Below are positions 13,009-13,047 of a stretch of 64,000 nucleotides of DNA, piece after piece. Below the pieces are notes generated by a model that saw only the letters and a program-made list of their open reading frames with translations, was not told the origin of the DNA and ran no database searches. Source of the stretch: Escherichia coli. GTDB taxonomy: Bacteria; Pseudomonadota; Gammaproteobacteria; Enterobacterales; Enterobacteriaceae. A program made the translations under genes and the position numbers. Location of the stretch: NCBI RefSeq assembly GCF_003334255.1, contig NZ_QOWU01000005.1; one strand, 5' to 3'. The number at the start of each line of letters is the position of its first letter. Within the stretch, counting starts at the first letter, position 1.

Positions 13009-13047
13009 CAGTGCTCTGGTAGCTGTAAAGCCAGGGGCGGTAGCGTG
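13009..13047 (+). promoter_or_regulatory. JUMPstart element with ops site (GGCGGTAGCGTG), the RfaH-dependent antitermination signal upstream of the O-antigen cluster
   Basis: The 39-bp sequence CAGTGCTCTGGTAGCTGTAAAGCCAGGGGCGGTAGCGTG is present in the galF-wzx intergenic region. Confidence 0.7.

Follow-up and report, generated by a model that had tools for sequence, protein, structure and literature searches.

The window analysed here, a 64,000-nt stretch of an Escherichia coli chromosome, carries the colanic-acid genes followed by galF, an O-antigen gene cluster, gnd and ugd (Table 1). The O-antigen cluster is approximately 10 kb long and AT-rich, with a G+C content of 31%. The galF-wzx interval (12751-13758, 1008 bp) shares 99.8% identity with the corresponding region of the ETEC strain 214-4, and from galF to position 26700 the window and 214-4 differ at only five positions. 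Two further complete genomes match the same 1008 bp over the full length. In RefSeq, the cluster of strain 214-4 is annotated with wzx (O167 family), glf, glycosyltransferases, an ATP-grasp amidoligase and wzy (O167 family). The presence of the amidoligase fits the L-alanine amide reported in the O167 antigen (PMC7685785).

Table 1. Features of the window from galF to gnd.
Feature	Position	Strand	Basis or remark
galF, conserved left flank gene of the O-antigen locus	11857-12750	+	RefSeq annotation of 214-4; ORF list
Near-perfect long hairpin with UUUUAUAU behind it, directly past the galF stop codon	12789-12846	+	
Conserved galF-JUMPstart spacer, expected O-antigen promoter region	12847-13008	+	
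JUMPstart stem-loop	13016-13034	+	RF01707 model, conserved
ops (GGCGGTAGCGTG), putative RfaH loading/pause site	13036-13047	+	Non-template strand
Spacer TCTAGGG (7 bp) from ops to the IS terminus	13048-13054	+	
ISEc1 (H-repeat, ISAs1 family) relic, both termini kept	13055-13693	+	Co-oriented with the operon
Hairpin CUCCUUA...UAAGGAG over the transposase Shine-Dalgarno sequence	13173-13192	+	RNA fold; kept in ISEc1 copies
Transposase pseudogene	13199-13684	+	tblastn with YhhI and SE11 transposase
Native leader, 65 nt before wzx	13694-13758	+	GAGG at 13753-13756
wzx, O167-family flippase, first cluster gene	13759-15024	+	RefSeq annotation of 214-4; ORF list
gnd, after the end of the O-antigen cluster (23457)	23510-24916		

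Positions 13009-13047 (+) hold an exact copy of the 39-bp JUMPstart element (CAGTGCTCTGGTAGCTGTAAAGCCAGGGGCGGTAGCGTG), between the end of galF (12750) and the start of the first O-antigen gene wzx (13759), which is the 5' region of the polysaccharide cluster. The Rfam model RF01707 aligned with this element over its full length (model positions 1-38) and scored 60.0 bits (gathering score 35; E = 7e-13). Between ops and the wzx start there are 711 nt, and RefSeq places the wzx start at the position equivalent to 13759 in three near-identical genomes. An initial annotation of this DNA, which had described a 39-bp JUMPstart with ops and wzx as the first gene some 700 bp after it, was therefore correct on both points. 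Regarding the wzx start, the annotated GTG at 13759 comes just 2 nt past the GAGG core, and an in-frame GTG at 13762 is better spaced; translation may in fact begin one codon further on.

A site was considered an ops when it agreed with the 12-nt consensus GGCGGTAGnnTG, including C3, G4, G5, T6, A7 and G8 as well as the pause dinucleotide T11 G12. The first six of these bases are needed for the recruitment of RfaH and the last two for pausing (PMC5995543). The ops of the window is an exact match to the consensus, with every functionally important base present. When the 64 kb were scanned with the consensus GGCGGTAGNNTG, this was the single copy found (+ strand), with 0.08 matches expected by chance and at least one match in 7 of 100 shuffled sequences. 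Both ops and all the genes of the cluster (13759-23457) are on the + strand; hence, they are co-oriented and ops is on the non-template strand. No RefSeq gene is annotated over ops, which lies within the conserved spacer, with a terminator-like hairpin of galF upstream and a promoter whose position is predicted only.

A degenerate second ops at 13688-13699 (GCCTGTAGCGTT, 9 of 12 positions), straddling the right end of the IS, was rejected. It has T instead of G at positions 4 and 12; position 4 is essential, as the G4C substitution abolished recruitment, and T11 G12 are common to all validated targets (PMC5995543). By a rough estimate, dozens of such three-mismatch matches are expected in 64 kb. 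We also scanned species-representative genomes for ops followed by TCTAGGG, as in the window. The sole match was an exact GGCGGTAGCGTGTCTAGGG in Nitrincola tibetensis (NZ_QKRX01000013.1, 4853-4871), which is intergenic, approximately 300 bp upstream of a 759-aa ORF and without an IS after it. We estimate that about two chance matches to this 19-mer are expected in 298 Gb. In this distant gammaproteobacterium, the match is probably an ops leader in which the 7 nt after ops agree by chance.

Upstream of JUMPstart, the RNA fold of 12751-12870 reached -35.1 kcal/mol (z = -4.95), and none of 200 shuffled sequences folded as well. Judging from this fold, the hairpin just after galF probably terminates galF transcription and would set the O-antigen operon apart as its own transcription unit. 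With such a hairpin behind galF, the O-antigen promoter would be expected in the conserved ~160 bp before JUMPstart. This spacer (12847-13008) is 96.7% identical to that of strain SE11. On the + strand, a simple scan of the stretch from galF to JUMPstart turned up no promoter resembling the consensus. For the O7 cluster, Marolda and Valvano (1998) reportedly mapped both the promoter and the leader. In strain CFT073, sigma-70 peaks were located upstream of ops (PMC9765446). A different organisation was seen in K-12 J53 (segment 279-1487), where an IS4-like ISVsa5 transposase gene takes the place of galF and ends approximately 20 bp before JUMPstart. In this laboratory strain, homology to the window starts at 13003, six bases before JUMPstart, and the usual promoter region is displaced.

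Downstream of ops, a single co-oriented ISEc1 relic accounts for 639 of the 711 nt of the leader. The initial annotation had seen in this gap an H-repeat relic and, in addition, AT-rich DNA. The relic was recovered both by tblastn with the K-12 transposase YhhI (E = 3e-67) and by RefSeq, in which an ISAs1 pseudogene is annotated here as 'frameshifted; internal stop; incomplete'. The separate AT-rich DNA was not, since the AT-rich stretch (13055-13198) is the non-coding left end of the IS itself. The remainder of the leader consists of the 7-bp spacer and the 65-nt native leader (13694-13758), the latter not being common to the other cluster types that we compared. If the relic were removed, 7 + 65 = 72 nt of leader would be left, inside the range of 10 to 114 nt observed in six other clusters. 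The whole leader has an A+T content of 64%. As for Rho-site composition, a modest stretch with more C than G (C/G up to 2.1) was found at 13074-13203, yet C is low overall.

We compared the relic with the intact ISEc1 of SE11 and with the K-12 H-repeat copies yhhI and ydcC, the termini being defined from three intact copies. Intact ISEc1 begins with CAGGGAAAGATCA and ends with TCGTAATCTTGCCCTG. The relic has retained its left terminus (CAGGGAAAGATCA, 13055-13067), 7 bp after ops, as well as its right terminus (TCGTAATCTTGCC-TG, 13679-13693) with one C deleted. By blastn, positions 13055-13637 share 91% identity with the first 584 bp of the SE11 element (SE11 segment 3627-4210) and positions 13634-13691 share 95% identity with its last 58 bp (SE11 segment 4857-4914). 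Approximately 646 bp of internal DNA are missing from the relic, and with them the catalytic portion of the transposase. The transposase can still be recognised by its residues 1-148 (79-88% identity to YhhI), plus the last 20 residues. Residues ~149-358 are deleted, so that just the last 20 codons and the stop codon are left after the deletion. The pseudogene starts with ATT in place of ATG and is interrupted by three in-frame stops as well as by a single frameshift near 13366. The element is a relic and not an active or autonomous IS. No target-site duplication was found at the window copy or at the K-12, SE11 and O15 copies. The hexamer TAGCGT is present in ops and directly after the IS, and the ops copy does not adjoin the left terminus. 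We also considered the relic as a member of a MITE-like family. This was rejected because the deletion junction is continuous only at the O167-type locus (3 of 5426 genomes), and the relic is hence not a spreading miniature element.

The relic also retains a hairpin in front of its transposase pseudogene. The RNA fold of 13165-13205 reached -8.0 kcal/mol (z = -5.55), and 0 of 200 shuffled sequences were as good. We infer from this fold that the hairpin would sequester the transposase Shine-Dalgarno sequence, AAGGAG pairing with the upstream CUCCUU. This hairpin and the lost start codon indicate that the leader is probably untranslated. In IS10 and IS50, hairpins sequester the Shine-Dalgarno sequence of the transposase and block its activation by read-through transcripts. 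ISEc1 resembles these elements in its conserved hairpin pairing the transposase AAGGAG with an upstream CUCCUU, for which the role in ISEc1 is predicted. The relic of the window differs from IS10 and IS50 in that its transposase is dead anyway.

Transcription signals were then sought between ops and wzx. A consensus scan of 13048-13758 revealed no intrinsic terminator on the + strand. Promoter-like sites in the same interval were at chance level, with four sites compared to 2.6 ± 1.4 in shuffled sequences. Three of the + strand sites, each matching 9 of 12 positions, are inside the relic (13089-13117, 13157-13185 and 13246-13275), and some RfaH-independent transcription may start from these sites. 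One could go further and propose that a promoter on the relic, namely the old transposase promoter within the left end of the IS (13055-13198), or in the 65 bp before wzx drives the cluster, with ops and RfaH being bypassed. The relic is co-oriented and its own promoter would point to wzx; two of the above sites (13089-13117 and 13157-13185) and a TATAAT at 13722-13727 could be taken as candidates. We find this proposal quite unlikely, as none of the sites exceeds 9 of 12, their number is that expected by chance and an acceptable -35 element is lacking for the TATAAT at 13722. A promoter in the relic or just before wzx was thus not retained. Moreover, transcripts starting downstream of ops could not load RfaH, while JUMPstart is perfectly conserved in the window. 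The loss of RfaH in CFT073 also led to premature termination in the AT-rich, H-NS-bound O-antigen operon (PMC9765446).

The junction between ops and the IS could also be read as an attenuator, in which the ops RNA pairs with the left end of the IS (13036-13078) ahead of six U (13079-13084), leading to termination unless the polymerase is RfaH-modified. A scan for hairpins with a U-tract behind them gave this one candidate, an interrupted hairpin of 15 pairs followed by UUUUUU (-14.6 to -16.4 kcal/mol), which is predicted in each of the three O167-type genomes but at none of the other ISEc1 copies. However, the three genomes are close relatives and the conservation of the hairpin therefore carries no weight. 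Its z-score is +0.27, 120 of 200 shuffled sequences fold at least as well, and an equal or better hairpin was obtained from 13% of random upstream contexts. The hairpin has an 11-nt loop and two bulges, is missed by the terminator scan and does not belong to the minimum-energy fold of 13009-13130. We rejected this candidate as indistinguishable from chance, and an attenuator at the junction is scarcely credible.

The wzx gene of the window was found in only 3 of 5426 complete E. coli genomes. The relic is present in all five known instances of this wzx leader, which come from these three complete genomes and two metagenome contigs; consequently, no IS-free ancestor of the leader was found in the complete genomes or in the metagenome scan. 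On the metagenome contig QZLR01000514.1 (reverse complement), which carries an O167-type cluster with 99.4% identity, the first 297 positions (1-297) correspond to the end of an IS3 in the opposite orientation within the ISEc1 relic (around window position 13603). This contig ends inside the IS3, between ops and wzx. On the other contig, OJNQ01013183.1 (reverse complement), JUMPstart, the relic and wzx match at 98.6%, and identity falls to 68% inside glf (2386-3008, window position 15381 onward). This drop points to a mosaic cluster whose downstream part differs. Finally, NZ_CP062824.1 is titled O169:H41, yet its wzx is 99.4% identical to that of the window and is annotated as O167 family, which may be a discrepancy in the serotype label.

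Strain 214-4 was typed as O167, and volunteers raised anti-O167 IgA (PMC7558491). Both the serogroup and the antibody response support expression from the O167-type locus. They also bear on the proposal of a polar relic that reduces or abolishes the expression of O antigen, leading to a rough or low-O-antigen phenotype. An untranslated leader of 711 nt with 64% A+T is a potential substrate for Rho and H-NS, and in the hly operon the long leader makes polymerase drop at once when rfaH is deleted (PMC9765446). Nevertheless, the locus of 214-4 is essentially the same as that of the window, and this strain is O167 and elicited the anti-O167 antibody in volunteers (PMC7558491). O15 is an established serogroup, and genomes with the O15-family wzx carry larger IS inserts at the same spot. 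The relic has also been kept in 5 of 5 instances of the O167-type cluster. We therefore regard a polar effect of this kind as highly improbable.

Taken together, the window likely carries a normal O167-type O-antigen control region with a dead IS in its leader, in which RfaH loads at ops and RNA polymerase reads through. Transcription would start in the conserved spacer between the terminator-like hairpin of galF and JUMPstart. RNA polymerase would then pause at ops (13036-13047), where the non-template strand would recruit RfaH. The RfaH-modified polymerase would proceed through the 711-nt, probably untranslated leader into wzx and the ~10-kb AT-rich cluster. RfaH counteracts pausing and keeps NusG away, thereby limiting Rho-dependent termination; here it would suppress pausing along with Rho/H-NS-dependent termination. 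RfaH stays on RNA polymerase across the whole transcription unit, and RfaH dependence was shown for the wzx operon of CFT073 (PMC9765446). The initial annotation had stated that RfaH-modified polymerase would have to cross the relic, which agrees with the anatomy of the locus, i.e., a co-oriented ops on the non-template strand, a leader that is probably untranslated, no + strand terminator found and promoter-like sites at chance level. The relic itself would be passive cargo, a scar of IS activity or of IS-assisted cassette exchange at the JUMPstart boundary. The long leader probably raises the sensitivity of the operon to the loss of RfaH, by analogy with hly, where the long leader brings about an immediate drop of polymerase upon rfaH deletion (PMC9765446). 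Such a stronger dependence, the most that the relic would contribute, would follow from the exposure of a long untranslated leader to Rho and H-NS. At the locus itself, a leader ten times the usual length is explained by the relic and the JUMPstart signal is intact, which has little import beyond annotation.

To place this leader among others, we considered the distance between ops and the first gene in other clusters. In six clusters without an IS, this distance is 10 nt (NCTC9966, O46/O134-family wzx), 28 nt (strain 2018-06-4CC, galE first), 59 nt (E. coli W, O6-family wzx), 74 nt (strain 2011C_4037, rfbB first), 75 nt (K-12 J53, rfbB first) and 114 nt (O84:H7 strain Trh52). According to ChIP-seq in CFT073, the distance is 40-67 nt in the wzx, kps and rfa operons, and in hly it reaches ~600 nt (PMC9765446). 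In uropathogenic E. coli, ops is 634 bp before hlyC (PMC6775461). Several other leaders are filled by IS DNA: 2679 and 2668 nt in two genomes with the O15-family wzx (intact ISAs1 nested in a second copy), 1428 nt in the NCTC9088-type cluster (intact ISEc1) and 1856 nt in SE11 (intact ISEc1 plus a fragment). In the O15 clusters (segments 3572-6174 and 3566-6157), the intact ISAs1 is inside another ISAs1 just after ops. Given the longer IS-filled leaders at the same junction elsewhere, and hly, the arrangement of the window is ordinary, and modest at 711 nt. It is already known in kind, and leaders extended in this way are common as well as functional. As a correction to the initial annotation, ~700 nt is no special hurdle: the hly leader measures 634 bp (PMC6775461), and IS DNA takes up 1.4-2.7 kb at this junction in the O15, NCTC9088-type and SE11 clusters. 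Hence, several serogroups tolerate an IS in the leader after ops, in keeping with the known action of RfaH over kilobases. On the practical side, in such serogroups O-antigen PCR or typing primed on JUMPstart will have to amplify 0.6-2.7 kb of IS DNA ahead of the first gene. If a long IS leader raises RfaH dependence, these clusters would also provide a natural series for studying leader length against Rho/H-NS silencing and the counter-silencing by RfaH.

The sequence around the junction gives some indications of how these leaders evolved. In most E. coli genomes, homology to the window ends exactly at 13047, the last base of ops. The outer copy of the O15 clusters has the same junction as the window, with ops followed by TCTAGGGG and the left end of ISAs1. 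The sequence TCTAGGG(G) after ops is common to the O167-type (13048-13054), O15 (segment 3564-3571) and NCTC9088-type (segment 2098-2105) leaders, whereas the other clusters diverge immediately after ops. In the NCTC9088-type cluster the IS begins 85 bp after ops, unlike the 7 bp of the window. Of 5426 complete genomes, 91 matched at least 80% of a 141-bp query covering the JUMPstart-IS junction; 183 genomes matched at least 80% of the 1008-bp galF-wzx region, relic included. The divergence from the third O167-type genome amounts to 3.8-5% in galF and the spacer, 1.1% in the relic and 0.5% in wzx. Given the lower divergence of the relic and wzx, the relic moves together with the O-antigen cassette, and recombination has its boundary at JUMPstart.

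Four cluster types were found with ISAs1/ISEc1 copies in the leader after ops, and all of these copies are co-oriented with the operon. This co-orientation could reflect either a bias, inserts in the opposite orientation being polar, or shared ancestry. A bolder reading is that the site 3' of ops is a recurrent IS landing site biased to co-orientation, that the IS serves as portable homology for cassette swaps and that the long leader makes the operon unusually RfaH-dependent, the whole being a selected module. If true, the IS leader, which extends 70 nt to 0.7-2.7 kb of untranslated sequence, would be a selected regulatory and evolutionary module and not junk. We consider this unlikely and favour the reading of a normal control region with a dead IS in its leader.

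With respect to known systems, the closest are the JUMPstart/ops-RfaH O-antigen (rfb/wb*) operons, including those of K-12, O7 and CFT073 (wzx). The window shares with them the same 39-bp element, the ops, the position after galF and the orientation. The difference is in the leader, which is 711 nt long here compared to 10-114 nt in the six clusters above and 40-67 nt in CFT073, and the whole of this difference is the relic. The hlyCABD leader of uropathogenic E. coli is similar in having an ops within a JUMPstart and a long untranslated leader (634 bp), and hly is RfaH-dependent (PMC6775461). However, no IS is reported in the hly leader in that study, and hly encodes a toxin with its secretion system and not a polysaccharide (PMC6775461). 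H-repeat remnants in O-antigen clusters, with a proposed role in cluster assembly and exchange, have long been described (PMC3715488; PMC7685785). The H-repeat elements of Salmonella groups D2/D3 and of E. coli O15, SE11 and the NCTC9088-type cluster belong to the same IS family as the relic of the window, are likewise at cluster boundaries or junctions and are often decayed. In Salmonella D2, the remnant is inside the cluster at a recombination junction and not in the leader. The relic of the window is set apart from the other H-repeats as an internal-deletion derivative present at the O167-type locus only.
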